A stretch of DNA of 64,000 nucleotides from an uncultured Bacteroidales bacterium (GCA_946402945.1 CAMIYB010000001.1:65427-129426), one strand, 5' to 3'; shown: positions 18,477 through 36,800, counted from the stretch's first letter. Numbers and translations: made by a program. Notes: generated by a model from the letters alone, not told the origin.

Positions 18477-18550
18477 GGTGCGGTAGTTCAGCTGGTTAGA
18501 ATGCCGGCCTGTCACGCCGGAGGTCGAGGGTTCGAGTCCCTTCCGCACCG
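18477..18550 (+). tRNA. tRNA-Asp(GTC)
   Basis: Acceptor GGTGCGG/CCGCACC, anticodon arm CCGGC-CTGTCAC-GCCGG, T-loop GGTTCGAGTCC; CCA not encoded. Confidence 0.97.
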
Positions 18551-18553
18551 CAT

Positions 18554-18590
18554 AAAAGAAGCCATTTCCTTTTTGGAAACGGCTTCTTTT
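18554..18590. terminator. Bidirectional intrinsic terminator after tRNA-Asp
   Basis: AAAAGAAGCC-ATTTCC / GGAAAC-GGCTTCTTTT hairpin with A and T tails. Confidence 0.85.
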
Positions 18591-18609
18591 CGTTTTGCCT
18601 GCCCCTGCT

Positions 18610-18627
18610 TCGAACCCTCGACCTCCG
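18610..18627 (-). repeat. 18-nt perfect inverted copy of tRNA-Asp 18518-18535
   Basis: TCGAACCCTCGACCTCCG is the exact reverse complement of CGGAGGTCGAGGGTTCGA. Confidence 0.9.
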
Positions 18628-18687
18628 TCCCCCGAGGGGAAGACGCCCGACAGGGCGGCAGTTTGTTTATGCGTGCGTCTGGATCCG

Positions 18688-19236
18688 CTATCTCTCGGAC
18701 CAGCTCTTGAGGTCGAAGAACATCAGCACGGTCTCGTCATCTTCCTTGGGGTCAGAAAGACGGGTGAACCCACACTTGGTATAAAACGGCTCCGCCTCAC
18801 GAAGAGCATCGACAGTGATATAACGGCAGCCGGACTTCCTCTCCTTGTAGTACCAGGTCTGGATGAAGAAGAGAATGTCTTTTCCGATTCCGGAACGCTG
18901 CTCCTGGCCATCCACAGCAAAACGACCAATCTTCAACGCCGGATAGGATGACCTCCTCTTGGCATTGGGAATCTTCCGCGAAAGACGGTTCCAAACCTTG
19001 GACTCGATGAATTCACGGTCTATCTTGTCGTTGAGGATGCTGAAATAAGCAAGGATATTTTCAGTTGCGTCATCCGTAGCGACATACGTCACGGCAAGGA
19101 ACTCTTTATCATAGAGCGTCGCATTGGGTGTATCGCCGTCGGTTTCCAACAAAAAACCGTTCAGGTCGGCAACGCCGCAGTCGAACGGTTTTATGACATC
19201 ATTTTCCGGCTGAAACTTGCGGATGGTATAACTCAT
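18688..19236 (-). CDS. GNAT N-acetyltransferase, TacT/AtaT-like putative toxin
   Basis: FDCG..DLN.FL, YPALKIGRFAVD, QRSGIG (acetyl-CoA loop) and GCRYITVDA...FY..CGF. Confidence 0.85.
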   Translation of the reverse strand: MSYTIRKFQPENDVIKPFDCGVADLNGFLLETDGDTPNATLYDKEFLAVTYVATDDATENILAYFSILNDKIDREFIESKVWNRLSRKIPNAKRRSSYPALKIGRFAVDGQEQRSGIGKDILFFIQTWYYKERKSGCRYITVDALREAEPFYTKCGFTRLSDPKEDDETVLMFFDLKSWSER

Positions 19237-20496: not shown

Positions 20497-20847
20497 TTAA
20501 TCGGCAGGTACTTCTATTTCTTTGATTTCCACCTCATTGCCACGCAGGAGCCAGGTGTTTACGCTGCCGCAGTGGGGACAGGTTTTGCCATGGGCGACCG
20601 TGCCGAATTCTTTCCCGCAGTCCCCGCAGTAGGAGACTGCGGGGACGGGAAGGATCTTGAGTTGGCAGCCTTTGAGCAGCGGCTCCTTGTCAGCGGCCCA
20701 GCGCCAGCAGTCGCCCAGGTAGTCCGGGATGACGGTGGAGACTTCTCCGATGTTCATCACTACGGCGGAAACCTTTTCGACGCCGTTTTCCTCGGCGGCT
20801 TTCTTGACGTCCCGGATGATATAGAAGACGATACCCAGTTCGTGCAT
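20497..20847 (-). CDS. hypA: Nickel metallochaperone HypA
   Basis: N-terminal MHE Ni site, IGEVS, and two CxxC (CGDC, CPHC). Confidence 0.93.
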   Translation of the reverse strand: MHELGIVFYIIRDVKKAAEENGVEKVSAVVMNIGEVSTVIPDYLGDCWRWAADKEPLLKGCQLKILPVPAVSYCGDCGKEFGTVAHGKTCPHCGSVNTWLLRGNEVEIKEIEVPAD

Positions 20848-20852
20848 GGGGC

Positions 20853-23678
20853 CTATTTCCGCTTAAAGAGGATCTTGCCGGTCCGTTTGACCATGTAGGG
20901 CAGGATGCCGCCGAACTTGTCCTCGGAGGTGCGCATGACGCTCGCTTCGGGGTGGACGCGGTGGAGGTGGATGGCGTCGAAACCGCACTTGGTGGTGCAG
21001 ACGCCGCAGCCGATGCACTTGTTCTCATCCACGACGGAGGCGCCGCAACCCAGGCAGCGGGCGGTCTCCCTGCGCACCTGCTCCTCGGTGAGGGTGAGGT
21101 GGTATTCGCGGAAGGGATCCTCCTGCGGGGCCTCGCCGGGCACCTGGCGGGAAGAATTGTCATAGGATTCCACGACGATGTCCTGCTTGTTGAGTTCGAT
21201 GAAGTCGCGGCGGTTGCGGCCGATGGTCATGTGGCCGTGCTGGACGAAGCGGTGGAGCGACTCGGCGGCCTCTTTGCCGGCGGCGATGGCGTCGATGGCG
21301 AACTTCGGACCCGAGTAGCAGTCGCCGCCCACGAAGATGTCGGGCTCGGCGGTCTGGTAGGTCAGTTTGTCGGCGACGGGATAGACGCCGCGGAAGAATT
21401 CGACCTTCGTATCTTTGAGCAGGTCGCCCAGGAGGACCGTCTGGCCGATGGCGAAGACGACCAGGTCGGCGTCGAGGGTAATCAGTTCATTCTCATCGTA
21501 TTTCGGGGCGAAACGATGGTTCTCGTCGAAGACGGAGGTGCACTTCTTGAAGACGATGCCGCTGACGCCCTCGCTGCCGAGGACCTCCTTCGGGCCCCAG
21601 CCGGGTTTGATCTCCACGCCGTCCTCGCGGGCCTCGCGGCGTTCCTCGAGGGAGGCGGGCATGATGTCTTCGGTCTCGAGCGAGAGCATCGTCACGGACG
21701 AGGCGCCGCTGCGCTTGGCCACGCGGGCCGCGTCGATGGCGACATTGCCGCCGCCCACGACCACGACCTTGCCGGATACCTTGACCTTGCCGGTGTTGGC
21801 CTCGCGGAGGAAATCGATGGCGGTGGTGGTGCCGGGGAGGGTCTCGCCGGGAATGCCGGGCAGGCGTCCGCCCTGGCAGCCGATGGCTACGTAGAAGCCC
21901 TTGTAACCCTCTTCGCGGAGTTGGGCGAGGGTGACGTCCTTGCCGACCTGGACGCCGGTGCGGATCTCCACGCCGATCTCGCGCATGATGTCGATTTCGG
22001 CGGCGATGACCTCTTTCTCCAGTTTATAGGAAGGAATGCCGTAGCGGAGCATGCCGCCGGGCTCGGCGTTCTTTTCGAAAACGGTCGGCTTGTAGCCCAT
22101 GGCGGCCAGGTAGTAGGCGCAGCTCAGGCCGGCGGGGCCGCCGCCGATGATAGCGATCTTCTCCTCCCAGCGCTCCTGTACGCTGGAGGCGATGTTGACC
22201 GGGGGGACGAAGCGGGTTTCGGCCTTGAGGTCCTGCTCGGCGATAAATTTCTTGACGGCGTCGATGGCGATGGGCTGGTCGATGGTGCCGCGCGTACAGG
22301 CGTCCTCGCAGCGGCGGTTGCAGATGCGTCCGCAGACGGCGGGGAAGGGGTTTTCGCGCTTGATCAGTTCGAGCGCCTCGCGATATTTGCCCTCGGCGGC
22401 CTTCTTCAGGTAGCCCTGGACGGCGATATGGGCCGGGCAGGCCGTCTTGCACGGGGAGGTGCCGGTGTCGTAGCAGTTGATGCGGTTGCGGTCGCGGTAG
22501 TCTTCCGTCCATTTCTCCGGCCCCCACTTGGTCTCGTCGGGCAGTTCGTGCTTGGGATACTGTACGGGGCCGTTTTTGGTGCAGAGTTTCTGGCCCAGCC
22601 GTACGGCGCCGGCCGGGCAGTATTCGACGCAGCGGCCGCAGGCGACGCAGTTTTTCGGATCGACCTCGGCGACATAGGCGCTGCGGGACATGTTCGGGGT
22701 GTTGAACAGTTGGGAGGTGCGCAGGGCGTTGCAAATCTTGACGTTGCAGTTGCAGATGGCGAAAATCTTGCCTTCTCCGTCGATGTTGGTGATCTGGTGG
22801 ACGAAGCCGTTGTCCTCGGCGATCTGCAGGATCTTCATGCATTCGTCGCGGGTGATGTAGTGGCCCCGCTTGGTCTCGACCAGGTATTCGGCCATGTCGC
22901 CCACGCCGATGCACCAGTCGCGGTAATCGTCGGCGCAGCCCTCGTCGAGTTTCTTTCGGCCGTAGCGGCAGGAACAGATACCTACGGCCAGATGGCCTTC
23001 ATAGCGTTTGAGCCAGTAGGAAATGTGCTCGATATCAATGGATTCGTTTTCCATGGAAATGGCCTTCTCCACCGGGATGACGTGCATGCCGATGCCCGAG
23101 CCGCCCATCGGGACGCTCGGGGTGATCTTCTCCAGGGGGAGGAAGGTCATCCGCTCGAAGAACATGGCCAGTTCGGGATGCTTGTCCATGAGTTCGACGT
23201 TCATGTTGGTGTATTCGGCGCTGCCCGGGACGAACATCGGCACCCAATAGACGCGGTCGCTCCGCTCGTGGGTAGTGCCGGGGACGGGTCCGTCCTTGGT
23301 GTATTTGTCGCCGTAGTCGAACTCCAGCATGCCGAAGACGCCGAGTTTGTCCAGCAGGTCGTCGAAGGCCTCTTCCGTGGAGGCATAGTGCTTCTGGCGG
23401 TTGAGTTCATGCAACTGCGCGTAGGTCCAGTGCTTGCGGACCTTGAAGGGACTGCCCGGGAGCATGTCCAGCAGCAGGTCGAGGGAGGCCTCGCGGGTGA
23501 TGGGGTCCATCTCGTCCTCGAAGATGCAGGCCAGGCCCCAGTACTCCGGGGCTTCGGTGGTCATCTTGATCTTGCCGGGGATGCGGTCCGTGACGTGGCG
23601 GACCAGTTTAATGAGTTTCGGATTGGGGTTTTTGTCGCCAAAATGTTTCGGGACAAATTTTTTGGACATTTCGGGCAT
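20853..23678 (-). CDS. Large Fe-S flavoprotein: Cys-rich N-domain, ferredoxin, GltD/SudA-like FAD/NAD(P)H module, C-terminal ferredoxin
   Basis: CSCR..., ICNCNVKIC, CVACGRCVEYCP, CKTACP, CGRICNRRCEDAC, GGGPAG, GGGNVA, RCLGC and CIGCGVCTTKC. Confidence 0.9.
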   Translation of the reverse strand: MPEMSKKFVPKHFGDKNPNPKLIKLVRHVTDRIPGKIKMTTEAPEYWGLACIFEDEMDPITREASLDLLLDMLPGSPFKVRKHWTYAQLHELNRQKHYASTEEAFDDLLDKLGVFGMLEFDYGDKYTKDGPVPGTTHERSDRVYWVPMFVPGSAEYTNMNVELMDKHPELAMFFERMTFLPLEKITPSVPMGGSGIGMHVIPVEKAISMENESIDIEHISYWLKRYEGHLAVGICSCRYGRKKLDEGCADDYRDWCIGVGDMAEYLVETKRGHYITRDECMKILQIAEDNGFVHQITNIDGEGKIFAICNCNVKICNALRTSQLFNTPNMSRSAYVAEVDPKNCVACGRCVEYCPAGAVRLGQKLCTKNGPVQYPKHELPDETKWGPEKWTEDYRDRNRINCYDTGTSPCKTACPAHIAVQGYLKKAAEGKYREALELIKRENPFPAVCGRICNRRCEDACTRGTIDQPIAIDAVKKFIAEQDLKAETRFVPPVNIASSVQERWEEKIAIIGGGPAGLSCAYYLAAMGYKPTVFEKNAEPGGMLRYGIPSYKLEKEVIAAEIDIMREIGVEIRTGVQVGKDVTLAQLREEGYKGFYVAIGCQGGRLPGIPGETLPGTTTAIDFLREANTGKVKVSGKVVVVGGGNVAIDAARVAKRSGASSVTMLSLETEDIMPASLEERREAREDGVEIKPGWGPKEVLGSEGVSGIVFKKCTSVFDENHRFAPKYDENELITLDADLVVFAIGQTVLLGDLLKDTKVEFFRGVYPVADKLTYQTAEPDIFVGGDCYSGPKFAIDAIAAGKEAAESLHRFVQHGHMTIGRNRRDFIELNKQDIVVESYDNSSRQVPGEAPQEDPFREYHLTLTEEQVRRETARCLGCGASVVDENKCIGCGVCTTKCGFDAIHLHRVHPEASVMRTSEDKFGGILPYMVKRTGKILFKRK

Positions 23679-23693
23679 GGAAGGATGAGCGTT

Positions 23694-24365
23694 TTAGTGT
23701 TTCCAAAGATGAATCTGTTCGAGGAGCCAGTCGGCGAAGGCCTCCACGCCTTCGCCCGTCCGGGCGCAGATGGGGATGACACGTGCCTTGGGATTGCGCA
23801 TGCGGATATATTCCCGGCACTTGTCCGGATTGAAATCGAAATAGGGGAGGACGTCGGTCTTGTTGATCAGGACCAGGTCGCAGACCGAGAACATCAGGGG
23901 GTATTTCAGGGGCTTGTCGTCCCCCTCGGGGACGGAGAGGATCATGGCGTTGGCCACGGCGCCGGTGTCGAACTCGGCGGGGCAGACGAGGTTGCCGACA
24001 TTTTCGAGGATGACGAGGTCCGTCTCTTCGAGAGAGAGGTTGTCGAGGCCCTGGCGGGTCATTTCGGCGTCGAGATGGCACATGCCGCCCGTATGGAGCT
24101 GGATGGAGGGGATGCCGGTGGCCCGGCGGATCTTGACGGCGTCGACGTCGGAGTCGATATCGGCTTCCATCACCGCCACGCGGACTTTGTCCTTGAGCAG
24201 GTTCAGCGTCCGGATCAGCGTCGTGGTCTTGCCGCTGCCGGGCGAACTCATCAGGTTGAGCAGGAAGACGCCCTTGGTTTTCAACTCTTTGCGGAGGGCA
24301 TCCGCATCCTGTTGGTTGTCGGCGAAGACGCTTTTCTTGATTTCGATGACTTTTACTTCGTCCAT
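23694..24365 (-). CDS. hypB: Nickel incorporation GTPase HypB
   Basis: Start MDEVKV at 24365; SSPGSGKTT, CHLDA, ENVGNLVCPAEFD, EGDDKPLKYP, NKTD. Confidence 0.95.
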   Translation of the reverse strand: MDEVKVIEIKKSVFADNQQDADALRKELKTKGVFLLNLMSSPGSGKTTTLIRTLNLLKDKVRVAVMEADIDSDVDAVKIRRATGIPSIQLHTGGMCHLDAEMTRQGLDNLSLEETDLVILENVGNLVCPAEFDTGAVANAMILSVPEGDDKPLKYPLMFSVCDLVLINKTDVLPYFDFNPDKCREYIRMRNPKARVIPICARTGEGVEAFADWLLEQIHLWKH

Positions 24366-24597
24366 AGGTTTTTCAGGGAAGGGGCCGAAAGCCCCAAAAT
24401 CGCTGCAATTTACGCATTTTGTCGCTTTTTGCCAAATAAAACGGACTCGTTTTTTTTCTTCCTTTCCCGGGCGTTGGCATCCCTCAAAAAATTGGTGCTT
24501 TTTCTTTGAAAAAACGTTTTGATATTGTAAATTCGCATAATGTTTTGTCCGGATTTGGGCAGAATATTGACCAAGTAACCATGTAATTTCAAACGCT

Positions 24598-25968
24598 ATG
24601 AAACGAGTTATGCTTATCGCGTCGCTTGTGCTGCTGCCGCTCTTTTCCTCAGTGGCCCAGGAGACCCAAAAATTCAACCAGTACGGCGTGGCGGTCACTT
24701 CCGACCGGCTTGACGTGGAAGCCCAGGACGGTATCCTGGTCCTTTCTTCGCCCAACACCCGTTACAAACTCTGGTTCGATATCCGCGTCCAGGCCGACGG
24801 CGCCGCGTTCTTCGGGGCCCCTTCCTGGGCTGACAAGATCGGTACCGGCGTCCAGATCCGCCGCGCCCGCTTCGCCGTCAAGGGCCAGATCGACGAGAAC
24901 TGGTACGGCGAGTTCGACATGGACCTGGCCAACGGCCTGGTCGAACTCAAGGACGCCATCGTCCGCTACACCGGCGTCCCCAACCTGGATATCCAGGTCG
25001 GTAACTTCAAGGAGAATTTCTCCATCCAGCGCAACACCACCTCCCGCTACCTGATGTTCATGGAGCGCCCGATGGTCTGCTCGGCCCTCACGCCGTCCCG
25101 CCACCTGGGCTTCAACGTCAAGTATGCCAAGGACTGGATCTGGGCTTCCGCCGGTATCTTCGGTCCGGAATTCGCCGGCGCCGAGGAATGGACCAACATC
25201 GCCGACAACAACAAGGACTACGGCCGTCCCTGCGGCTATTCCCTGACGGCCAAGACCGTCTTCCGTCCGCTCTACCAGCTGGACAACGCCAGCCTCCACA
25301 TCGGTCTGGCCTATTCCTACCGTACCCCGCTCGCCAGCGAGGCCACCGGTGACTGGGGCTCCTTCCGCGCCAGTTGCCGCAACTCCACCAGCATCAACCG
25401 CAAGAAGTACATCGATACGAACCTGGTCCCGAACTATGACCACAGCCACCTCTTCACCGCCGAACTCGCCGGCCACTGGGAGGGCCTGCGCTATGAGGCC
25501 GCCTACATCGGCAACGTGGCCCAGTTCAAGGACGGCGCCTCGAAGTATTTCAGCGGCTGGTATGTCCAGGCGGGCTACCTCCTCTTCGGCGGCAAGCAGC
25601 GCTATGACTCCAAAGGCGCCAAGTACACCAAGGTGGAACGCGGCCGGAAGTGGGGCGACATCGAACTCTGCGGCCGTGTCGAGACGGTGGACCTGAACGC
25701 CGACAAGGCCCTGGCCCCCAACCTGCAGAAGGTCATGGGCGGTTCCGCCATGGCCTACACCCTCGGCATCAACTACTATGTCAACAACAACGTCAAGTTC
25801 CAGTTGAACTACCAGTTCAACGACAATGACCGCTTCGCCAACGGGAAGAACAAACTCTTCTCCGGCCTGGACGAAAACGGCGCGCCCACCAAGGATCCTT
25901 ACAAGACCGTTGGCAAGGCCGGCGTGGACTACCACATGGTCAGCCTGCGTTTCGAAATCGATTTTTAA
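24598..25968 (+). CDS. OprO/OprP-family phosphate-selective porin
   Basis: Signal peptide; IRRARF, GNFKENFS...TSRYLMFMERP, SGWYVQAGYLLFG, TLGINYY and terminal Phe. Confidence 0.88.
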   Translation: MKRVMLIASLVLLPLFSSVAQETQKFNQYGVAVTSDRLDVEAQDGILVLSSPNTRYKLWFDIRVQADGAAFFGAPSWADKIGTGVQIRRARFAVKGQIDENWYGEFDMDLANGLVELKDAIVRYTGVPNLDIQVGNFKENFSIQRNTTSRYLMFMERPMVCSALTPSRHLGFNVKYAKDWIWASAGIFGPEFAGAEEWTNIADNNKDYGRPCGYSLTAKTVFRPLYQLDNASLHIGLAYSYRTPLASEATGDWGSFRASCRNSTSINRKKYIDTNLVPNYDHSHLFTAELAGHWEGLRYEAAYIGNVAQFKDGASKYFSGWYVQAGYLLFGGKQRYDSKGAKYTKVERGRKWGDIELCGRVETVDLNADKALAPNLQKVMGGSAMAYTLGINYYVNNNVKFQLNYQFNDNDRFANGKNKLFSGLDENGAPTKDPYKTVGKAGVDYHMVSLRFEIDF

Positions 25969-25998
25969 TCCCATATTTATTATTTAATACAAAGCATT

Positions 25999-26631
25999 AT
26001 GAAAAAGATTTATGCATTTGTGCTTGCGGCCATGACGATCATCGCCTGCAACCCCGACAATGAAGTCAAGAAAGACGGTGGAGACGATACGCCGAAGGAC
26101 ACCGCTCCGGAAATGAAGACCACCGATGCCACCACGGTCTGTATCAACGAAGTATGCGGCGTGAGCGGCTATAAGGGCATCGAGCTGTACAACCCGACGG
26201 ATGCCGAGATTTCCCTGGAGGACTTCACGATTGTCAAGAACAAAGAGGCAGAACCCTGCTGGACGGCTGCCACCGGCGACAAGATCGCGGCCAAAGGCTT
26301 CTTCCTGATCAAGGGAAAGAAGGAGTGTGACAACATCAAGGATCTTGCACAAGGCACCTCAAAAGCCAGTTTCTCTCCCACCAAGTCCCTGATGCTGGAG
26401 CTGAAGAATGCATCCGGCACTGTCATCGATACCTTTGACCGTGGCTGGGCCGTGAACGGCAAGGAGGTGGATCCCGAAAATGAACTGAACCTCGCTACCC
26501 TGACGACCTCCGTCGGCCGCAAGGAAGACGGCAAGGCCGTTTGGAAACTGCTCTCCATGACCATGGGCAAGACCAACGCCGGCGCCGAAGATTCCGGTAA
26601 TGTTCCCGTCGCTGAAGTTCCTGCCCAGTAA
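25999..26631 (+). CDS. Lamin-tail-domain (LTD) lipoprotein
   Basis: Lipobox IIAC; INEV, IELYNPTDAEISLEDF, LKNASGTVID and SVGR..DG...W...TMGKTN are LTD hallmarks. Confidence 0.8.
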   Translation: MKKIYAFVLAAMTIIACNPDNEVKKDGGDDTPKDTAPEMKTTDATTVCINEVCGVSGYKGIELYNPTDAEISLEDFTIVKNKEAEPCWTAATGDKIAAKGFFLIKGKKECDNIKDLAQGTSKASFSPTKSLMLELKNASGTVIDTFDRGWAVNGKEVDPENELNLATLTTSVGRKEDGKAVWKLLSMTMGKTNAGAEDSGNVPVAEVPAQ

Positions 26632-26635
26632 TACC

Positions 26636-27274
26636 ATGGCTGAACTCAAAATCGGCGAGCAGAGCAAGCCTCGCTTTGAATTCCGCAGCTTCGGGCAGTG
26701 CTTCTGCCAGCAGGCCAAGCGGATGGCGCGCCTTTCCGTTCCCGTACCTGAAAAGGTATGGGAGCGGGAGAGCGACGAGATATACATCATCTCCGCAAAG
26801 AACGACATCAACAACACCAAGATCCGCGGCGGCAAGATGGACATCAAGACCTATGTCCAGACCGTCGACGGCCTCGAGCAGTGGAATCCCCTCATGAAGG
26901 GCGAGTTCCCGATCTCCCGCGAGGTCCTCGAGAAGGAAGTCTTCCCGGCTTTCATGGTGGAGATGCCTGCGCTCACCAAGGATACCTACACCTTGGATGA
27001 ATTCCTCGCCATGGTCAAGGCCAACAAGGACCTGGCCGCCGTCCGCGTCCACAAGCAGCGCTTCGGCTACATGGTCAACAACACCATCTGCGAGGTGGGC
27101 AACGTCCTGATCAACGGCGCCAAGGTCGTGACGATCAACTCCGAGTCCACCGAGATCGAGGATATCAAGAAGACCATCGCCGACGTCGGGCTCGAGGGCG
27201 TGGAGAACATCAACTACCTCCAGGCCATCAAGCGCGTGATCGGCATGAGCGACAAACCCCTTGCAAACGAATAA
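26636..27274 (+). CDS. Hypothetical protein, probable divergent CYTH/triphosphate-tunnel fold
   Basis: Start MAELKI at 26636. RFEFRSF, DEIY, KIRGGKMDIK and HKQRFGY follow the order of the CYTH ExExKF, DxY, RxR..K and KxR motifs. Confidence 0.6.
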   Translation: MAELKIGEQSKPRFEFRSFGQCFCQQAKRMARLSVPVPEKVWERESDEIYIISAKNDINNTKIRGGKMDIKTYVQTVDGLEQWNPLMKGEFPISREVLEKEVFPAFMVEMPALTKDTYTLDEFLAMVKANKDLAAVRVHKQRFGYMVNNTICEVGNVLINGAKVVTINSESTEIEDIKKTIADVGLEGVENINYLQAIKRVIGMSDKPLANE

Positions 27275-27277
27275 GGT

Positions 27278-27754
27278 ATGGCACAGGAAATCGAACGCAA
27301 ATTCTTGGTAAAGGGCGACTTCAAGGCCGAGGCCTTCAAAGCCACCCGCATCACCCAGGGTTACCTGAGCAGTGTTCCGGAGCGGACCGTCCGCATCCGT
27401 GTCAAAGGCGACAAGGGCTTCATTACGGTCAAGGGAATCGGCAACGCTTCCGGCGCCGCCCGTTTCGAGTGGGAGAAGGAAATCCCCGTGGATGAGGTGA
27501 AGGCCCTCCTGGACCTCGCCGAGCCCGGCGTGATCGACAAGACCCGCTACCTGGTCAAAAACACCGACGGGAAGCATACCTGGGAAGTGGATGAGTTCTA
27601 CGGCGACAACGACGGCCTGACGGTCGCCGAGGTCGAACTGGCCGACGAGAACGAGCCCTTCGACAAGCCCGCGTGGCTTGGGGAAGAAGTGACGGGCGAT
27701 CCCAAGTACTTCAACTCCATGCTGATGAAGAATCCGTACAAGAACTGGAAGTAA
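27278..27754 (+). CDS. CYTH domain triphosphate tunnel metalloenzyme (inorganic triphosphatase-like)
   Basis: EIERKF, QGYL, RIR, TVKG, KTRY, WEVDEF, AEVEL, EVTGD.KY.N. Confidence 0.93.
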   Translation: MAQEIERKFLVKGDFKAEAFKATRITQGYLSSVPERTVRIRVKGDKGFITVKGIGNASGAARFEWEKEIPVDEVKALLDLAEPGVIDKTRYLVKNTDGKHTWEVDEFYGDNDGLTVAEVELADENEPFDKPAWLGEEVTGDPKYFNSMLMKNPYKNWK

Positions 27755-27761
27755 AGGACAG

Positions 27762-29363
27762 ATGGATCCGGTGAAGGCAGGTGCGGCGGTCGACCCGCTG
27801 GACATGAACAACTACAAAATCGAGAAACTGCCCAAGATGCAGAAATCCCGGTTTGAGGTGTGGATGGCCCGGCTGGGCGGTCCGCTGGCCCTGATCGCCT
27901 TCGTCTGGATCTGCTGGTTCTGTCACATCGGCTTCATCGACCATCTGGACACCAGCCTGCTGGCCGCTTCCGCACAGAAGCGGCTGGCGGCGCTGGGCCC
28001 GGAAGGTTTCCTGCGCGCCAACTACGCGATGCTGGCCATTTTCGTGGCCAGTCTGATTCTCTGGATGACGGAGGCGCTGCCCAACTACCTGACCTCCCTG
28101 ATCCTGATGCTGGGCGTCGTCCTCTTCGGCGTCACCACGCAGAAGGAGGCCCTGGCCCAGTTGGGCCATCCGGTGATGTGGCTCAATATCCTGAGTTTCG
28201 TCCTGGCGTCCATGCTGGTCAAGACCCAGTTCGCCAAGCGCCTGGCCCTGGCTTTCGTCATCAAATTCGGCAAGAGCGCCAAGAGCGTGCTCTGGAGTTT
28301 CCTGCTGATCAACCTCATCCTTTCGGCCTTTATCTCCGCCACGACGGTCAAGGCCACCATCATGCTCCCGATCTTTATGGTCATCTGCGCCATCTACGGC
28401 GCCTCGGACGGCCACCGCAACAATTTCGGGCGCAACCTCGTGATCCAGAATCTTTTCCAGGTCAATATCGGAGCCAACGCCTTCTATACCGGCAGCGGGG
28501 CGCACCTGCTGGCCATTTCGCTCATCGCCGGTTTCCTCGGCTCCTGCGACTTCGGTTATAAGGAATGGCTTGTGGCCGTGGGCCCGATGAGCATCCTCAT
28601 CCTGGTCGTGGGTCTGCTGATGGGCATGTATGTGTTCTTCCCGATGAAAAAGGAAGAGCAGCATCCCCAGATCGACGGCGGTATCGAGCGCCTCCGGAAC
28701 GAACTTGCGGCGATGGGCCGGATGTCGGCCGAAGAATGGAAGGCGGTCGCCATCTTCCTGATCGTCCTCTTCCTCTGGGTTACCAAGGGCACCTTCCACA
28801 ACATCGACGAGACGATCGTCGCCCTGATCGGCGCCATCCTGGCCCTTCTGCCGGGTATCGGCGTGGTCAAATGGAACGATGTGGACATTCCCTGGCACCT
28901 GATGCTCTTCTCGGCGGGTGCCTATGTCCTCGGCAGCGGCCTCAATGCGACCGACCTGCCCAATACCATGGTCAATGCCGCCTTCGATTCGATGGGCATC
29001 ACCTCGGACACCCCCTTCTGGGTGCTGTACGTGATCTTGACCTTCCTGATGATGTATTCCGGCCTGGTGTTCCAGAGCAAGACTATCCGTACCATGGTCT
29101 TCGTCCCCATCGCCCTGGGTGTGGAGAAGCGTTTCGGCTTCCCGCCCATGAGCCTGGCCCTGCCGGTCGCGATGCTCATCGAGCATTGCTATGTGCTGCC
29201 GTTCAACAGCAAACCGGCGGCCCTCCTGTACAATACCAACCAATACAGCCAGACGGATGCCTTCAAATACGGCATCACCATGATGACCTTCTCCTGGTTG
29301 CTGATCCTCGTGTTCGGCCAGACGGTCCTCAAGTGGCTGCACATAACACCCGGCCTGTTTTAG
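27762..29363 (+). CDS. SLC13/DASS family anion transporter
   Basis: LWMTEALP, TGSGAHL, WNDVDIPW..MLF and LP...PAALLY motifs; many TM helices. Confidence 0.88.
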   Translation: MDPVKAGAAVDPLDMNNYKIEKLPKMQKSRFEVWMARLGGPLALIAFVWICWFCHIGFIDHLDTSLLAASAQKRLAALGPEGFLRANYAMLAIFVASLILWMTEALPNYLTSLILMLGVVLFGVTTQKEALAQLGHPVMWLNILSFVLASMLVKTQFAKRLALAFVIKFGKSAKSVLWSFLLINLILSAFISATTVKATIMLPIFMVICAIYGASDGHRNNFGRNLVIQNLFQVNIGANAFYTGSGAHLLAISLIAGFLGSCDFGYKEWLVAVGPMSILILVVGLLMGMYVFFPMKKEEQHPQIDGGIERLRNELAAMGRMSAEEWKAVAIFLIVLFLWVTKGTFHNIDETIVALIGAILALLPGIGVVKWNDVDIPWHLMLFSAGAYVLGSGLNATDLPNTMVNAAFDSMGITSDTPFWVLYVILTFLMMYSGLVFQSKTIRTMVFVPIALGVEKRFGFPPMSLALPVAMLIEHCYVLPFNSKPAALLYNTNQYSQTDAFKYGITMMTFSWLLILVFGQTVLKWLHITPGLF

Positions 29364-29367
29364 ACCT

Positions 29368-29988
29368 ATGACGATAGAATGGAATCTGATCCTGCGCCTG
29401 CTGATAGCGGGCCTGCTCGGGGGCCTGATCGGCCTCGAGCGGATGGTGCGGGCCAAGGAAGTGGGCATCCGTACCCACTTTGTCGTCGCACTGGGAAGTG
29501 CGCTCTTCATGCTGATTTCGCAGTTTGCCTTCTCCGGACGCTTCGATTCGGCCCGCGTGGCCGCCCAGGTGGTGTCCGGCATCGGCTTTATCGGAGCCGG
29601 CGTGATTATTTTTCAGAAGAATGCGGTCCGCGGCATCACCACCGCCTCAGCCCTGTGGGTGGCCGCCGCCGTCGGCCTTGCCTGCGGGGCGGGCATGTAT
29701 GACGTGTCGGTCGCGGCTGCCGTGATGACGGTCATCTGCCTCGAGGCGATGCACTATGTCTCGGTCCAATATGGAGAAAAGACGGTATTCGTCAGCATGA
29801 GCCCGGTCCGGAATTCGGAGGCGGCGGAAATCCTGGAAAAGGTCCACAAGGCGGGCTACACCGTGGAAGATTTCTCGGTCCATGGCGATGTGGCCGAGAT
29901 GGCGATCCGGATCCGGCAGAAAGATCATGAAAGTCTGGTCCGTTTCTTCCTGGGCCTGTCTGACGGTCTTCGGATAGATATTTCATAG
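29368..29988 (+). CDS. MgtC/SapB family membrane protein
   Basis: IGLER, GIRTH, RVAAQVVSGIGFIGAG and GITTASALW. Confidence 0.92.
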   Translation: MTIEWNLILRLLIAGLLGGLIGLERMVRAKEVGIRTHFVVALGSALFMLISQFAFSGRFDSARVAAQVVSGIGFIGAGVIIFQKNAVRGITTASALWVAAAVGLACGAGMYDVSVAAAVMTVICLEAMHYVSVQYGEKTVFVSMSPVRNSEAAEILEKVHKAGYTVEDFSVHGDVAEMAIRIRQKDHESLVRFFLGLSDGLRIDIS

Positions 29989-30010
29989 TTTTTACGACAG
30001 TAACGTGCGT

Positions 30011-31924
30011 ATGAGAAAATATTTCCTTTTGTTTGCGGTCATCCTCGCGGCGCTTTCCGCCTGTAAGAAGGATGTCCCCTTTTCCGTTTATTATGGTGGC
30101 GTTCCGTCCGGCGACGTTCCCCCCGGTCCCGTCGTTCCGCCGACGCCGAGCGAGGACTCGATGGTCCCCGAATCCAACCCGGATGCGGTGCCTTACGGCG
30201 ATCTGGTGGATCCTCTCCGCGATGCCGGGCAGTTCTTCATCCCGCAGAACGACTTCTCTCCCAAGGGGTATTGGTATGTTATGCATACCGATTACAACCA
30301 TCGGGAAGATCCATCCGTGAACGGTTCCGCGGGTGCCGGCCTGCAGGGATACCTGCTGATGCATTCGGTCGTCGGCCTGATCAACAAGGCGGCCATCGCC
30401 GGCGAGATCGACTACTGCGCCTGGATGGAAAAGGGCGAACTGGCCTATGATACCGAGCGTGCCCTGCTGGGCAGCCAGATCGGCCGGCAGACGGCCCTGG
30501 AACTGGCCACCAAGGGTTACGGGAAGTGGGAAGGCATCGATGTGCAGGCGAAGGACCTGTTCAAGGGCTATGTCCTTACGGACCTGGAGAATAATCCCGA
30601 GAGCGGCAACATCGCGGCCGTGGCCTCGCATGTGTACGATGCGCTGATCGCCGATGTCAAGAACGAGCAGTACTTCAAAGACGCCGGCTATACGCTCAAA
30701 TGCGACTGCCGCAACATGACCCTCCGGCAGGCCTTCGACCAGTTCAAGGACAAGTGCAACAACAATGCGCTGGTCCTGATGCCGGTCGGCGTCAAGGGCC
30801 ACATGGACGTCGCTGCCGGTGAAATCCGCGACTACGCCATCGCCAACCGGCTCTTTGTGGCCAACCTGGTCGGCGGCAAGCAGAACAATACCGCCCTATT
30901 CAAGGAGATTCTTGACTGGCTGCAGCCCGGTTCCCAGGTTATCGGCTGGGAAAATAACGACCTCGTGGGGGAGGACAGTTTCGTAGATCCCGTCTCCCAG
31001 TACGGCCACCTGATGCTGGCGGCGGACTGGAGTTACAACCATGCGCTGACCTCCCGCAGTTATGCCGGCCGTCAGCCCGCCACGCGGGCGAAGGTGATCA
31101 ACCCGCGCAATATCAATTACAACGTGAAGGGCAATTACCTGTCTTACTTCCTGACGGACGGTGACAACTACCAGTTCATCATCACCAACGACTTCATCAA
31201 CAGTTATTACAAGCGTCCTTCGGCCGTTACCACCAAGACGGCCTTCGAACTCGGTTCGCAGTCGCTGATCCAGCTGGCCCCGACCCGCTTTACCTATCTG
31301 ATGGAGCAGCAGCCTTCGGCGGAATGTACCATTATGGAGACTTTCGGCGGCGGCTATTATTATATCGATACCTATTCCACACAAGGTTCTTCCGCGTCCA
31401 AACGGGCGGCCAACATGAAGATGGTCGCCGAGCGGACGGCGGCCCACATGCGCCAGCACGGCATCAAGATCCTTCACGTGATGGCCCGGAGTTTCTCCGA
31501 CCCGAGGGGACAGGAGATGCTGCAGGCCTTCGTCGATGCCAACGACCAGCTCGAGGGGATCACAGGCGTGGAGTATGCCCCCTACAACGGCGGTCAGGGC
31601 AAGGTCTATTGGTTTACGAACAAGGCCGGCTATGACATCCCGCTTATCACGACCAAATACATGCTCTGGCAGGGCATTTCCCCGCCGGCGATGGCCGCCC
31701 AGAACATGAACCGCAACGAAGAAGCCGACAAGCAGACCTTCAGCACGGTCGCCATCCATGCCTGGAGCGACTTTGACGGCAACCGGGCTTCCGACGGCGC
31801 CGTCCTGATGCGCAACGGCCTCGAGGACCGCTTCAAGGTCGTATCCGTCCAGGAACTCATCTGGCGTCTGCGCATGGCCGAGCGGGAAGAGCAGACCAAG
31901 CAGTTCCTTGCCACAATTAAGTAA
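30011..31924 (+). CDS. GxGYxYP-family putative glycoside hydrolase lipoprotein
   Basis: Lipobox LSAC; GLINK, IRDYAIAN, AADWSYN, TDGDN, GGGYYY and HAWS motifs. Confidence 0.8.
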   Translation: MRKYFLLFAVILAALSACKKDVPFSVYYGGVPSGDVPPGPVVPPTPSEDSMVPESNPDAVPYGDLVDPLRDAGQFFIPQNDFSPKGYWYVMHTDYNHREDPSVNGSAGAGLQGYLLMHSVVGLINKAAIAGEIDYCAWMEKGELAYDTERALLGSQIGRQTALELATKGYGKWEGIDVQAKDLFKGYVLTDLENNPESGNIAAVASHVYDALIADVKNEQYFKDAGYTLKCDCRNMTLRQAFDQFKDKCNNNALVLMPVGVKGHMDVAAGEIRDYAIANRLFVANLVGGKQNNTALFKEILDWLQPGSQVIGWENNDLVGEDSFVDPVSQYGHLMLAADWSYNHALTSRSYAGRQPATRAKVINPRNINYNVKGNYLSYFLTDGDNYQFIITNDFINSYYKRPSAVTTKTAFELGSQSLIQLAPTRFTYLMEQQPSAECTIMETFGGGYYYIDTYSTQGSSASKRAANMKMVAERTAAHMRQHGIKILHVMARSFSDPRGQEMLQAFVDANDQLEGITGVEYAPYNGGQGKVYWFTNKAGYDIPLITTKYMLWQGISPPAMAAQNMNRNEEADKQTFSTVAIHAWSDFDGNRASDGAVLMRNGLEDRFKVVSVQELIWRLRMAEREEQTKQFLATIK

Positions 31925-33844
31925 ATGATCTCTGATATGAAGCATATGCAACTCTTTCGGAATGTACTTGCCCTGGGCCTGACCTCGCTGGTTGTCCTCC
32001 TGACGGTCTCTTCCTGCGCGAAAAAGCAGGCGGAGTCCGGCTCCTGGGACGACAGCGTGGTCGGTTACATCTCCGTCTCAGGTGTCGTACGGGACACCTT
32101 CGGCAATCCGGTGGCCGATGTGGATATCTCCTTCAAGGGGACCAACGCCCAGCGCGAATTGCGGAAGATCACTTTCAGCGATTTCGACGGGTCCTATTCG
32201 ATCGAACGTGTTCCTTCCAACGCGCGGTTCATCATTTTCGAGAAGGAAGGTTTCTCGACGCTGGCCTATACCCTTCTCCCGGAGCGCTTTGCCTCGGGAG
32301 AACCCCTGGAACTGAATCCTGTCATGGAATTTGCCAACGCGATCATCCGCGGGACGGTGCTCGACGCCACCAATGGCCAGCCCATGCAGGGGGTCCGCAT
32401 CGACTGCGGGGATATCTCCGTCAACACCGCGGAAGACGGTTCCTTCTCCATCGAAGGCCTGGCCCTGAAGGATTACCGGATCGATTATGTGACGACCGAC
32501 GGCCTGACCTACACGCGTCAGGTGGAGGCGGACGAGTTCATCGACGGTACGGCGACCCTGCCGACCGTGCGGCTGGGCGGTGAGGAGATCATGCCGGGCA
32601 TGAAGTGGCAGGAAATGGCGGATGCCCCCGTCTGGTACGGCAACAACTACCGGGGCGCCGACGGCTATGGCGGCATCAACCACTGGTCGGTCGGCTACAT
32701 GTCCATCTTCCCGGTCTGGCTCAAGCCCCAGGACAAGGGCAACGAGAAAGACTGCTTCGGCCATTACCGCTACGAGGCCGAAGGCTGTGCCCTGGTCAAC
32801 ATGGAAGGGGAGAACGCTTCCTATCCGGAGGACCGTTTCATCGCCTACACCTATGGCCGCAAGACCATCACGGAAGGCAACCGCTACATGCATGTCAATG
32901 TGCGGACGCACTATGCTACCACCGCCGAACCCGCCGCCTTCGGCCTCCAGGTTGTCAACCTGACCGACGGCTCCCTGACGGTCGATCACGTGGCGGATTA
33001 CACCTATGCCAACGGCGAGTTCAAGACTTTCACCTTCGACCTGGGCGACTATGTCGGCAAGGAGATTTTCATCGCCTTCGGTATCTACTGGCGCACCTAT
33101 AACTTCCATCTTCCCTGCCGGCGGATCTTCTTCGCTTCCTCCCCGGATGCCAAGAATGACGATGCGCTGACGGGCGAGGCGGTCGAGGGAGCCGCCTGGC
33201 GCGGCTTTACCCGGGAGAACATCGGTTCGCTCGGGGTCAATCCGGGCCGTTCCTTCTCCGGCCTGAACCACGGAATGAACGACAGCGAGGCCGTCGGCGG
33301 CGTCCGCCACAAGCATGACCCGGGCTCGCCGCAGGGCTACAGCCCGCTGGCCGGGACGGACCACCTCATCACGAGTTGGACCCTCCAGTATGTCAACCAG
33401 ACCGTCGAGCCGGTCAATTCCGAAGGCTACACCATCAAGACCCGTTCGGACGTCGATGCCAACTTCTCCATGCCCGAGACCTATCTTTACAGCCGGTTCC
33501 GTGTCATCGACGCCACGAGCCACCTGCATCTCTACGCGCGGACCTTCTCCAGCACCAACCCGACGGTGTTCCGGGTGACGGTCGTCCCGCTGTCGACCTT
33601 CAAGGCCCAGGCGCTGGCTCCCTTCGCCAACACGGCCAATACGGCCGCCGCGGTGTCCGGAGGTGACGGGTGCTGGCAGTTCCTCCACGAAAGCGGCAAC
33701 GGCGACAAGGCGGAATACGCCCGCTTCGACTACAACCTGGCGGAGTACATCGGGCAGGATGTCGTGCTGGCTGTCGGCGTGTACAAGGGTGTGACCCGTG
33801 ACGGTGAGCAGAAACTCTGCATCCGTTCGATTGAGTTGGATTAA
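31925..33844 (+). CDS. Surface lipoprotein with two carboxypeptidase-regulatory-like domains (PUL accessory/glycan-binding)
   Basis: Lipobox VSSC; SGVVRDTFGNPVADV and RGTVLDATNGQPMQGV repeats; two beta-sandwich ends (FDLGDYVGKEI, YNLAEYIGQDV). Exact start uncertain. Confidence 0.75.
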   Translation: MISDMKHMQLFRNVLALGLTSLVVLLTVSSCAKKQAESGSWDDSVVGYISVSGVVRDTFGNPVADVDISFKGTNAQRELRKITFSDFDGSYSIERVPSNARFIIFEKEGFSTLAYTLLPERFASGEPLELNPVMEFANAIIRGTVLDATNGQPMQGVRIDCGDISVNTAEDGSFSIEGLALKDYRIDYVTTDGLTYTRQVEADEFIDGTATLPTVRLGGEEIMPGMKWQEMADAPVWYGNNYRGADGYGGINHWSVGYMSIFPVWLKPQDKGNEKDCFGHYRYEAEGCALVNMEGENASYPEDRFIAYTYGRKTITEGNRYMHVNVRTHYATTAEPAAFGLQVVNLTDGSLTVDHVADYTYANGEFKTFTFDLGDYVGKEIFIAFGIYWRTYNFHLPCRRIFFASSPDAKNDDALTGEAVEGAAWRGFTRENIGSLGVNPGRSFSGLNHGMNDSEAVGGVRHKHDPGSPQGYSPLAGTDHLITSWTLQYVNQTVEPVNSEGYTIKTRSDVDANFSMPETYLYSRFRVIDATSHLHLYARTFSSTNPTVFRVTVVPLSTFKAQALAPFANTANTAAAVSGGDGCWQFLHESGNGDKAEYARFDYNLAEYIGQDVVLAVGVYKGVTRDGEQKLCIRSIELD

Positions 33845-33860
33845 TGAAAAGGAAGACGAT

Positions 33861-36800
33861 ATGAATAAACGTATTGTATGCCTTCTGACAATGCTGGGGA
33901 TCTTTCTCCTGCCGGTATTGTCCTATGCACAGAATCCCATTACCGTAACCGGCGTGGTCTCCGACGGGCAGCGGCAGCCGATCATCGGCGCCAGCGTCAT
34001 GCTCAAGGGGGCCAAGACCGGGGCCGCCACTGACATGGACGGCCGCTACTCGATTACGGTCCCCGATAATGCCGTACTGGAGTTTTCCTACCTGGGCATG
34101 GTGACGCAGAGCGTCCCGGTCGGCGGCAGGAAGACCATCAACGTTTTGCTCGAGGAAGATGTCAACTACCTGGATGCGGCCATCTTCGTGGGGTACGGCA
34201 CCCAGAAGAAGGGTTCCCTGACCGGATCGGTCGTCGCCGTCAGCGGAGACGATATGGTCCGCACCAAGAACGAGAACCCGCAGAATATGCTCACGGGCCG
34301 TGTCCCGGGCGTGCGTATCTGGCAGAAGACCGCCGAGCCGGGCCAGTACAATTCTTCCCTGGATATCCGTGGCTTCGGTACTCCGCTTGTCATCATCGAC
34401 GGGGTGGAACGCGGCATGAGCGATTTCCAGCGCCTGTCCCCTTCGGACATCGAGAATGTCTCCGTCCTGAAGGACGCCGCGGCGGCCATCTACGGCCTCA
34501 AGGGCGGTGACGGCGTAGTGCTGGTGACGACCAAGAGCGGTTCCGCCGGCAAGACGCGCGTCACCTACGACGGTAACTTCACCTTCCAGACGCCGGCCTC
34601 GCTGCCGCGCCAGATGGACGCCCTTTCTTCCATGCTGCTCGTCAACGAGCGCAGCATGGGCGGTGTCGAGGGCGGCGCACCGGAATTCCCGGAAGAGAAG
34701 ATCGCCCCCTACCGCGACGGCAGGGCCAAGGGAACGGACTGGAACAGCCTCATCATCCAGGATATGGCCCCGCAGACGCGCCATGACCTGAGCATCAGCG
34801 GCGGTTCTGATAAAATCCAGTTCTACGTGGGCCTGGGCTATTTCTTCCAGGAAGGCTTCTGGAAGAGCGGCGACACGAAGTACGACAAGTTCAACCTCCG
34901 CTCCAACATTACGGCCCAGATTGCCAATGGCCTGAAATTCCGCCTGAACCTGTCCGGCTATTCCGAACTCCTCAAGAACCCGCTGGACGATCCGGAACTG
35001 ATCATCCGCTACTGGTGGAAGCAGAGTACGGTGTGGGATGCCTATGCGGATCCCGCCCAGACCATGCTGAACTACCAGGACCTGGAGCTGGAGTGGAACT
35101 CCGTGGCCCGAATCTACACCGACATCTCCGGTCATCGGAAAAACGACAGGAAGAGTTTCAACATCGCTCCTTCCCTGACCTATGATTTCGAAGCCATCAC
35201 GCCCGCCCTCCAGGGCCTGAGCGCCAAGGTCCTGTTCAGTTACGACTACCGGATCTCGCAGGACGAGCGTTATCGCAAGGAATACTACCAGTATGCCTAC
35301 AATCCTTTGACCCAGACCTATGAGTCGAAACTCTATGCCGCGTCTTCGCCCAGCCAGTTGACCCGGACCGACACGGTCAACTACTCCTGGCTGCTGCAGT
35401 CGCTCCTCCAGTATGACAGGACTTTCTCGAAGCATCATGTCGGGGCGATGGTCGGCTGGGAAATCCAGAAGAAATTCGCCGACGGCTGGCGGGGTTGGGG
35501 CGACCTGGCCTTCGCTTCTCCCTATTTCAAGGCCCTCTCCGTGGACAACCACAACCTGGCGCAGACCACGCTCACCGAGTATGCCTATGAATCCCTGATC
35601 GGCCGTCTGAACTACAATTTCGACGAGCGGTATCTGATTGAGGGCCAGTTCCGTTACGACGGTTCCTCCCGCTTCGCCCCCGGGCACAAGTGGGGCTTCT
35701 TCCCCTCGGTTTCCGCCGGTTGGCGCATCTCCCAGGAGCCCTGGTTCAAGAGCAGCCCCCTGAGTTTTATCAACCAGTTGAAACTGCGGGCCAGTTATGG
35801 TATCCTGGGTGCGGACGGATCCACCTATGAATGGATTACGGGCTACACCTACCCGGCCGCCACCCTTTCCGACAACGGATACTACACCTCCAACGCTCCG
35901 ATTTACTATCTGGGCAGTTGGGTGATGCGGGCCGATCCCAAGGCGCTGGCGAACGAGAATGTGACCTGGTACAGGAATTATACCTTCAATGCCGGTATCG
36001 ACTTCGAGGCCTGGCAGGGCCTCTTCGGCTTCTCCTTCGACTACTTCTACCGTTACCGCTGGGGCCTGCTGGGCCAGAATACGGGCGACTTCCCCACGAT
36101 TGTCGGTGCGACGCCCCCGCTGGAGAACCTGAACTCGGACTGCCATTTCGGTTTCGAACTGGAACTGAGCCACCGGCACCGGATCGGCCAGTTCCGTTAC
36201 CAGGCGAAGATGATGATGTCCATCACCCGCAACAAGCGTCTCTACTGGTACAATACGACCCATTATGCCAACTCCTACGATGCCTGGCGGAACGATGCGA
36301 ACAACCAGCGTTACCAGGGCCTCAAGTTCGGGTATGAGGTCATCGGACAGTACCAGAGTTGGGAGGATATCTGGACCTACGACATAAACAAGGGCAACGG
36401 CGTCCGTCCCGGCGATTTCAAGTACCTCGACTGGAACGGAGACGGTACCATCGACGGCCAGGATGCCCATCCCTATTCCTATCAGGGCACGCCGTGGATG
36501 AACTTCTCCCTGTCCCTGGACGGTTCCTGGCGCAACCTGGACTTCAGCATCCTGCTGCAGGGCGCCGCCCTCGGTTCGGTCAAGTTCGGCGAGCCGCAAC
36601 TCAGCATCTGGGGCCAGCACGGCGGCGGTATGCTGGAACAGTTCGCCGACCGCTGGCATCCCTCGGTCGTGACCAACGATGTCTATGACCAGACCCTGAC
36701 CTGGATTCCGGGTACCTACGCCTATGGCGGCAATTCCCCGGACGAGAACAGCGATTTCAACGTCCAGCCCATCGACTACCTGCGTCTGAAGGCCATCGAG

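Follow-up and report, generated by a model that had tools for sequence, protein, structure and literature searches.

Gene content of the locus

The gene cluster described here lies in a 64,000-nucleotide stretch of DNA from an uncultured Bacteroidales bacterium (GCA_946402945.1 CAMIYB010000001.1:65427-129426), which is called the window below and belongs to an assembly that is 70.6% complete. A preliminary description, made from the sequence alone, had proposed that six co-oriented genes behind one AT-rich promoter region form an operon for scavenging of (poly)phosphate or triphosphate. The coordinates of the open reading frames (ORFs), together with Pfam and NCBIfam matches, confirmed the six genes, their plus-strand orientation, and the family labels of all but the 26636 protein, and the gaps between them are 30, 4, 3, 7, and 4 nt. 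The AT-rich promoter region was also found, as the upstream spacer has a GC content of 40% versus about 60% in the window, and it contains a match to the Bacteroidota sigma-A consensus. It is likely that a second, divergent promoter in the same spacer serves hypB. The features of the operon are the following:

24505..24535 (+): predicted Bacteroidota sigma-A-type promoter (TTTG-N19-TAAATTCG), a pattern match inside the 40% GC spacer
24598..25968 (+): anion-selective porin of the OprP/OprO family, 456 amino acids, basic ladder kept (PF07396, E 4e-36)
25999..26631 (+): lamin-tail-domain (LTD) lipoprotein, 210 amino acids, lipobox Cys17, predicted envelope binding protein (PF00932, E 9e-10)
26636..27274 (+): X212, unclassified protein of CYTH/TTM fold and family-defining gene (predicted model, fold search)
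27278..27754 (+): TTM158, canonical short CYTH/TTM protein, predicted tripolyphosphatase converting tripolyphosphate (PPPi) to pyrophosphate (PPi) and phosphate (Pi) (PF01928, E 1e-16; 3typ)
27762..29363 (+): DASS/SLC13 carrier, 533 amino acids, of a Lys-rich, exchanger-like subfamily (PF00939/TIGR00785, E 2e-54/4e-60)
29368..29988 (+): MgtC/SapB-family membrane protein, a clade-restricted, non-core accessory (PF02308, E 1e-36)

The 3′ end of the operon is not fixed by spacing, because mgtC is followed after 22 nt by a GxGYxYP lipoprotein gene of like orientation, and no clear terminator lies between them; this lipoprotein gene stood beside MgtC in none of 40 related loci.

Conservation of the operon

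The conservation of the cluster was analyzed in two sets of loci. The close loci were the best 80 of 540, at 92% identity or higher, with counts taken only over loci long enough for each comparison, and the nearest of them came from Bacteroidales/Cryptobacteroides records from ruminant and other animal guts. The distant loci were the 12 operon carriers among 400 complete Bacteroidota genomes that had been sampled evenly. The data showed that the close loci contained the porin (76/77), the LTD lipoprotein (76/78), TTM158 (77/77), and the DASS carrier (72/72), while in the distant loci the porin, the LTD lipoprotein, and the carrier were present in 12/12, and X212 and TTM158 in 11/12, where one contig ends. 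The gene order in the distant loci differs between lineages. The DASS subfamily occurred in 12 of the 400 genomes with 41-62% identity, followed by a gap down to 25-27%, and X212 (E<1e-60) was found in exactly the same 12 genomes, with a weak match in one more. Eight of the 11 places with weak DASS matches served as controls, and none of the operon genes adjoined them. Hence, the porin, the LTD lipoprotein, X212, TTM158, and the carrier constitute a conserved five-gene core, as the survey across Bacteroidota bore out for the grouping proposed earlier, and X212 and the carrier are the defining pair of the system, because they share the same 12 genomes and the control places are without operon neighbors.

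In one ruminant-gut genus the cluster was present in 10 of 36 genomes. A family that was sampled 28 times had the triphosphatase in 28/28 and the cluster in 0/28 genomes, which may explain why the cluster went unnoticed in model gut strains. No description of the cluster, or of a bacterial inner-membrane carrier for PPi or PPPi, was found in a literature search that covered mostly openly readable papers, without their supplements. The system is real, conserved, and uncharacterized, and its parts come from known superfamilies.

The two CYTH/TTM-fold proteins

TTM158 matched NeuTTM (NE1496, 3typ) with an E value of 3e-18. Its ExExK motif, Tyr29, Lys52, and RxR, KxR, and ExE motifs aligned to 3typ, with the Tyr28/Lys52 dyad in place, and were invariant in 26 orthologues. 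TTM158 thus has the sequence features of the NeuTTM/CthTTM type, and tripolyphosphatase activity is predicted for it. NeuTTM and CthTTM are described as tripolyphosphatases with a Tyr/Lys dyad, whose biological significance was called unclear, and bacterial enzymes of this kind were proposed to act in proofreading (PMC3440374). TTM158 shares with these two enzymes the ExExK motif, the dyad, and the pairs of basic residues; it differs in its setting, as the available part of that source mentions neither a carrier nor a porin linked to them (PMC3440374). Genes for CHAD and TTM proteins in polyphosphate (polyP) operons are already known from the portion of 10.1101/567040 available to us, where they occur without this carrier.

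X212 had no match in Pfam and none in the PDB by phmmer, and the CYTH profile PF01928 matched 0 of the 105 family members in the alignment used here (its homologues number 3543 close and 1126 representative sequences). Tests of its sequence as a CYTH protein were weak or negative: hhalign against the TTM158 alignment gave 0.2%, a profile search gave E values of 0.095-0.5 to archaeal CYTH proteins, and the Atlas value for a CYTH cluster was 0.85. Only the search by fold settled the assignment, and the fold of X212, as predicted, is that of CYTH/TTM proteins. The AlphaFold model built from the 105 sequences (pLDDT 96) had TTMs as its top Foldseek matches, namely AtTTM3 (E 9e-7), ThTPase, and ygiF. 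It superposed on the ygiF structure with a Z score of 12.5 and a root-mean-square deviation (rmsd) of 4.3 over 177 residues, while VTC chains scored lower (Z 5.3-8.0).

The residues of X212 are strongly conserved, with Y50, K71, and K140 in 105/105 members, E15 and R17 in 104/105, and the basic tunnel and other residues K62, R64, R142, E153, and E170 in 100-103 of 105. In a motif register taken from the model and weak alignments, RxExR replaces ExExK, with Arg at the first Glu (R13, 98/105) and Arg for Lys, and xxE replaces ExE, the first Glu (position 168) being mostly Ala, Cys, Ser, or Asn. Two of the four metal-binding acidic positions are therefore changed. The CYTH fold that the preliminary description gave to the 26636 protein thus stands, and the plain hydrolase activity given with it is not assured. 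X212 differs from NeuTTM, CthTTM, and E. coli ygiF in its RxExR and xxE motifs and has 9-16% structural identity to them, and it is best filed as a new TTM subfamily.

Among 11 long X212 homologues, 10 were fused to Ppx/GppA and one to PiT. The Ppx/GppA fusions come from environmental bacteria, and their neighbors included a SulP/STAS permease (21/80), a weak CYTH match (13), and an adenylate kinase (8). The PiT-X212 fusion (647 amino acids, eight members) may be an assembly or frameshift artifact, as may a single X212-TTM158 fusion that lacks the first strand of the TTM. A tandem second X212 paralogue, with 35-36% identity, was seen in two genomes of other families (L030:6871-7494 (-) and L033:3-620). 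A complex prediction for X212 and TTM158 scored 0.21 against a mark of 0.32, which gives no answer, and it was not used.

Porin and LTD lipoprotein

The porin matched PF07396 across the barrel with 125.6 bits (cut-off 20.9), and its matches in the PDB were 2o4v (E 7e-16) and 4rjw (E 9e-15). Conservation was assessed in 90 homologues (75 close, 15 distant). R63, R88, D119, S149, and R150 were present in 90/90, R89 and R157 in 89/90, and position 138 was Lys in 89/90 and basic in 90/90, while R145, at the position of OprP K121, was kept in 75/75 close and 8/15 distant homologues. The roles of these sites are assigned after their OprP/OprO equivalents. On this basis the porin has the arginine ladder and the central basic site that characterize OprO/OprP. 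The basic residue at position 138 forms a trend resembling the added positive charge of the carrier described below. The ExtI model for selenite porins gave a weak match (E 1e-4), far below the cut-off. The lipobox of the LTD lipoprotein was read from its sequence.

The arrangement differs from that of OprP/OprO in Pseudomonas, which operate with the Pst/Pho regulon. The porin family and the arginine ladder are shared, while the window porin has Lys or Arg where OprP/OprO carry Tyr, Phe, or Asp. In Pseudomonas, uptake by an ABC transporter follows periplasmic hydrolysis; the window operon has a secondary carrier and cytoplasmic TTMs instead. Also unlike in Pseudomonas, no PstSCAB/PhoBR genes were seen in the operon loci, although no dedicated search for PhoB was made.

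The carrier

The carrier scored 203.7 bits against TIGR00785 (cut-off 198.6), and its fold search matched DASS proteins with a Z score of 38 and an rmsd of 3.0 over 449 residues. Residues of its predicted binding site were mapped through alignments with DiT1/DiT2.1 and through a sister-clade orthologue aligned to LaINDY, with VcINDY aligned as well. In this mapping K197 corresponds to LaINDY Arg159, K440 to Gly398, R443 to His401, K484 to Gly443, and G434 to His392. In LaINDY the place of Na+ is taken by Arg159 and His392, the latter with His401 at a distance of 4 Å, and the substrate is contacted by residues 154-159, 208-212, 396-399, and 442-444; hairpin insertions are described for DASS exchangers in the same source (PMC7553777, available part).

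Among 189 sequences (69 close and 120 sister-clade), position 197 was Lys in 69/69 close and Arg in 119/120 sister-clade carriers (Lys or Arg in 188/189), K440 and K484 were invariant (189/189), and R443 was kept in 182/189. The seven exceptions have Gln at position 443 together with Gly at E474, and this covariation with the loss of E474 suggests a salt bridge between R443 and E474. The motifs SATTxK and QSKTxR stand where symporters have their SNT motifs. Six generic DASS proteins had SNT/SNx-type and TPP motifs and no hairpin insertions, while the carrier has exchanger-type insertions. Judged by its sequence, the carrier thus lacks the two SNT motifs and the nonbasic Na1 site of a Na+ symporter, and has the basic residue at Arg159 and the hairpin insertions of an exchanger. 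The two lysines added in the substrate loops point to an anion of higher charge than a dicarboxylate.

The carrier shares the DASS fold (Z 34-38) with the exchangers LaINDY (6wtw) and DiT1/DiT2.1 (9mcr, 9mcu), as well as with the symporters VcINDY, NaCT, NaS1, and Pho90. With the exchangers it also shares the basic residue at Arg159 and the hairpin insertions; it differs from them in having only 19-23% identity, lysines in place of Gly398 and Gly443, an arginine in place of His401, a threonine in place of Asn156, and a conserved N-terminal extension. The link to the phosphate carriers Pho87/90/91 drawn in the preliminary description proved generic only, because Pho90 is absent from the 14 solved sequence relatives of the carrier, all of which carry carboxylates or sulfate, and, with 17-18% identity in the search by fold, is no closer than other DASS proteins. 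No characterized member of the subfamily was found, and the carrier is best filed as a new DASS subfamily. This filing, and that of X212, follow from the fact that X212 lacks the canonical CYTH pattern, and the carrier lacks the symporter pattern and has only half of the exchanger pattern. The N-terminal extension (27762-27850), in which D11, L13, Y18, E21, L23, and P24 are conserved in at least 90% of 26 orthologues, is absent from generic DASS proteins and could dock a partner.

MgtC and other accessory genes

MgtC had been counted as a part of the route, which does not hold for the core of the system. It was found in 41/68 close and 0/12 distant loci, and in the porin tree (FastTree, 62 rows, without loci that had short porins or neither an MgtC nor a 490-amino-acid-protein label) the loci where it follows the DASS gene all fall in a single clade. 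No MgtC match was obtained in six operon-bearing genomes of other families. Six of the seven MgtC genes in X212-less genomes of the genus were fetched, and their neighbors were unrelated. The window protein shares PF02308 with Salmonella MgtC, for which a link to the Pi/ATP/Mg2+ balance is published (PMC7980370), and it differs from that protein in being accessory and in scoring below both NCBIfam cut-offs (virulence-type equivalog NF011912, 96 versus 255 bits; NF007431, 163.5 versus 214 bits). Salmonella MgtC is reported to limit Pi uptake under Mg2+ starvation (PMC7980370), the opposite effect is reported in macrophages (PMC6658541), and MgtC homologues are said to act by context (PMC13712879), in the parts of these sources available. 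By analogy, a role of the window MgtC as a brake on Pi or Mg2+ is plausible.

The claim that the route is complete was not sustained either, as the window lacks the upstream genes for DUF47 and PiT-LuxR, which are present in 46/67 and 49/72 close loci, respectively; in the distant loci PiT and DUF47 each occur in 9/12. The window-type form without them accounts for 23/72 loci, with varied upstream neighbors. A lipoprotein with an SdiA-regulated/phytase-like beta-propeller was encoded in 18/80 close and 9/12 distant loci. In 6/12 distant loci (L143-L148) a gene for a divergent PhnD-type binding protein heads the operon, with a sensor kinase and a sigma-54 activator adjoining where scanned, and this protein is a candidate sensor of an outside ligand. 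A membrane pyrophosphatase (PPase) gene of the K+-dependent type was found 24-82 nt after mgtC in 12/40 loci, and in the genome G029 it is a second copy. The idea that the operon-linked PPases form a special clade, separate from the usual enzyme of the genus, was rejected, because the unlinked copy of the host genome falls among them in a quick tree.

A 490-amino-acid protein without Pfam or NCBIfam matches is encoded directly after the DASS gene in 22/68 close loci, e.g., L026:4356-5852 (-). Further examples are L027:4745-6202 (-) and L149:9033-10505 (-); the Atlas clusters are unnamed, and one membrane segment is predicted. In one distant locus the gene lies between those for the TTM and the carrier, and the protein may belong to the system too. 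That MgtC and this protein are interchangeable parts was considered from their mutual exclusion (41 and 22 of 68 loci, both in 0), and the idea was dropped because the exclusion follows the tree, with two changes for the 490-amino-acid gene. In several other families a protein of ~920 amino acids, also without Pfam or NCBIfam matches and unrelated to the former by phmmer, follows the DASS gene directly (L029:3207-5978 (-), L030, L033, L142:12172-14934). In 4/12 distant loci (L153:11351-12067, L152:7651-8367) a 239-amino-acid exported, membrane-anchored protein follows the gene for a sister-clade carrier; it matched neither of the TTM profiles.

Metabolic setting

The host genome encodes a Na+-translocating PPase above the cut-off and a Na/Pi cotransporter. 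Its phosphofructokinase has the GGDD/PKT signature of the PPi type, and the best model was PPi-dependent, below the cut-off for this partial query. A motif of the PPDK type was also found. In five operon-bearing genomes PPK1 was found once, and PPK2 and a family-I PPase were not found. PstS did not exceed the cut-off in any of three near-complete genus members, and it was found in both of two genomes of other families. The host assembly, at 70.6% completeness, yielded no Ppx, PPK1, PiT, DUF47, or PstS. Ruminants recycle three to four times their phosphorus intake via saliva, and rumen microbes can nonetheless be phosphorus-limited, as reported in the part of PMC12784716 available.

Proposed function and alternatives

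Observed directly were the genes present, their joint conservation, and the folds and residue patterns of their products, and from these we infer all further steps. We propose that the operon imports PPi or PPPi, probably by exchange, with hydrolysis in the cytoplasm, and does not simply serve scavenging in starvation; we put the chance that this is correct at even. The LTD lipoprotein, and in relatives also the SdiA-regulated beta-propeller lipoprotein, would bind metal-polyphosphate at the envelope, and the OprO/P-type porin would pass PPi and PPPi, or short chains. The carrier would then take them up, probably in exchange for Pi; K440 and K484 would neutralize the extra charge, and K197 and R443 would take the place of Na+. 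In the cytoplasm TTM158 would cut PPPi into PPi and Pi, and PPi would feed the Na+-pumping PPase and the PPi-type phosphofructokinase, and the cell would thereby obtain energy as well as phosphorus. X212, which lacks two metal ligands, may bind or trim the chain or transfer phosphate rather than be a duplicate hydrolase. PiT and DUF47 in full-length loci, or MgtC in the window clade, could manage the load of Pi and Mg2+. The condensed-phosphate theme of the preliminary description is supported by the intact NeuTTM residues, the Ppx/GppA fusions (10/11), and the basic carrier pocket, while the substrate itself is a prediction.

Several observations weigh against this proposal. The close loci (n=80) are near-relatives and not independent. 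The equivalent of His392 is Gly or Ala in 69/69 carriers of the window clade versus His in 120/120 of the sister clade, which makes exchange less sure for the window clade. VcINDY outranks LaINDY in the sequence search with the window carrier, and the DASS fold search ranks by conformation, symporters first, and does not separate exchangers from symporters. TTM158 homologues were found in 56/400 genomes of the phylum, mostly without the cluster, so TTM158 may have a housekeeping role. In loci of X212-Ppx fusions, matches to the porin, DASS, PiT, and TTM158 were found in 0/80. The linkage of the membrane PPase is limited to one clade, with 0/12 distant loci, and the enzyme is present in 45/61 relatives anyway. 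No extracellular polyphosphatase is encoded in the locus of the window, and an abundant source of PPi or PPPi in the gut is not established.

Plain phosphorus scavenging, in which condensed phosphates would enter by Na+ or H+ symport under Pi starvation and be hydrolyzed for phosphorus only, is the alternative closest to the preliminary description, and we judge it unlikely. It agrees with the OprO/P porin, with the PiT and DUF47 neighbors, and with the missing His392 equivalent of the window clade, and a review reads the growth of anaerobes on PPi as phosphorus supply rather than as energy use (PMC10433651, in the part available). Scavenging when Pi is limiting agrees poorly with the basic residue at Arg159 and the exchanger-type hairpin insertions, and with the fact that PstS was found neither over the cut-off in three of three near-complete genus members nor in the host assembly. 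The closest loci come from the ruminant gut, where the recycling of Pi in saliva (PMC12784716) weakens a role in starvation. An organic polyphosphate, such as nucleoside or thiamine triphosphate, a phytate-derived inositol phosphate, or a phosphonate, could instead be dephosphorylated inside by the TTM pair. CYTH proteins do include ThTPase and NTPases, and the phytase-like lipoprotein (18/80 and 9/12 loci) and the PhnD-type sensor protein would agree with such a ligand. This explanation seems quite improbable, as the pockets of DASS proteins are established to take C4-C6 anions, sulfate, or Pi, and no gene for nucleoside, thiamine, or inositol catabolism is among the annotated conserved neighbors. 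The nearest characterized TTM is, moreover, a specific inorganic tripolyphosphatase (PMC3440374, available part).

An outward route is also conceivable, in which surplus PPi, PPPi, or Pi would be exported for detoxification, Mg2+ sparing, or binding of surface minerals, with the TTMs in proofreading. The reversibility of exchangers, the proofreading proposed for tripolyphosphatases (PMC3440374), the limitation of Pi uptake by Salmonella MgtC (PMC7980370), and the failure to find a family-I PPase in five operon-bearing genomes are consistent with it. We nevertheless regard export as distinctly improbable, since the periplasmic binding protein, sensor kinase, and sigma-54 activator of 6/12 distant loci suggest that a ligand from outside induces the operon, a PPK that could make internal chains was not found, and a hydrolase next to an exporter would compete for its substrate. 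Finally, the carrier could be an ordinary exchanger of di- or tricarboxylates or of sulfur oxyanions, its clustering reflecting shared regulation and not one pathway. This would suit the substrates of all 14 solved relatives and the weak porin match to the ExtI model (E 1e-4, far below the cut-off), but the replacement of both SNT motifs, the two added lysines, and the strict 12/12 pairing with X212 despite changes of gene order make it very improbable.

PgtABC-PgtP, UhpABC-UhpT, and GlpT are antiport systems that exchange phospho-anions for Pi, with carriers of the MFS family and organic monophosphates as substrates. In its logic the window system resembles such antiport modules more than Pst, as a ligand-induced exchanger of a phospho-anion for Pi would be shared, here with the binding protein, kinase, and activator in 6/12 distant loci. 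It differs in having a DASS carrier and a porin/LTD/TTM module, which Pgt, Uhp, and GlpT are not known to have.

The import of PPi and PPPi proposed above also has a bolder version, which we hold to be rather doubtful. Anaerobic Bacteroidota would harvest energy from outside PPi and PPPi: the carrier would swap them for Pi, the PPi made by TTM158 would drive the Na+-PPase and PPi-dependent glycolysis, and X212 would be no hydrolase but a single-metal TTM phosphotransferase running VTC-like chemistry backwards. A review cites Peck et al. (1983) for anaerobes growing on PPi, PPPi, and tetrapolyphosphate, and it still treats the energy use of environmental polyP by microbes as a hypothesis (PMC10433651, in the part available). 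If true, the energy reading would supply the missing genes for this claim of growth on inorganic polyphosphates. The locus would make the question testable, as it offers one carrier, four carrier residues (K197, K440, R443, and K484), and two enzymes for testing. If import of PPi and PPPi is true, the known substrates of DASS proteins would also no longer be limited to carboxylates, sulfate, and Pi, and the locus would establish a new TTM subfamily.

Flanking genes

No Rfam families were found in 23500-31000. Weak matches to EspJ and PETase were far below the cut-off and were ignored. Contigs from RNA libraries of sheep and cattle gut covered parts of all six genes and bridged X212 and TTM158; they were not counted as expression because they are mostly contigs of relatives, may hold DNA, and come without a silent-stretch control.

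Divergent from the operon, at 20497-24368 (-), lie hypB (CobW/HypB domain), a gene for a 941-amino-acid Fe-S/flavin oxidoreductase, and a hypA-like ORF. Further upstream, in 18477-19236, a tRNA-Asp gene precedes a stretch of lower GC content, in which a 182-amino-acid ORF (18688-19236 (-)) resembles that of a GNAT acetyltransferase; the region is a possible insertion site. After mgtC on the same strand, 30011-36986 encodes the GxGYxYP lipoprotein, a lipoprotein with a carboxypeptidase regulatory domain, and a SusC-like protein, and this region is a glycan-utilization locus that is not conserved with the operon (0/40).

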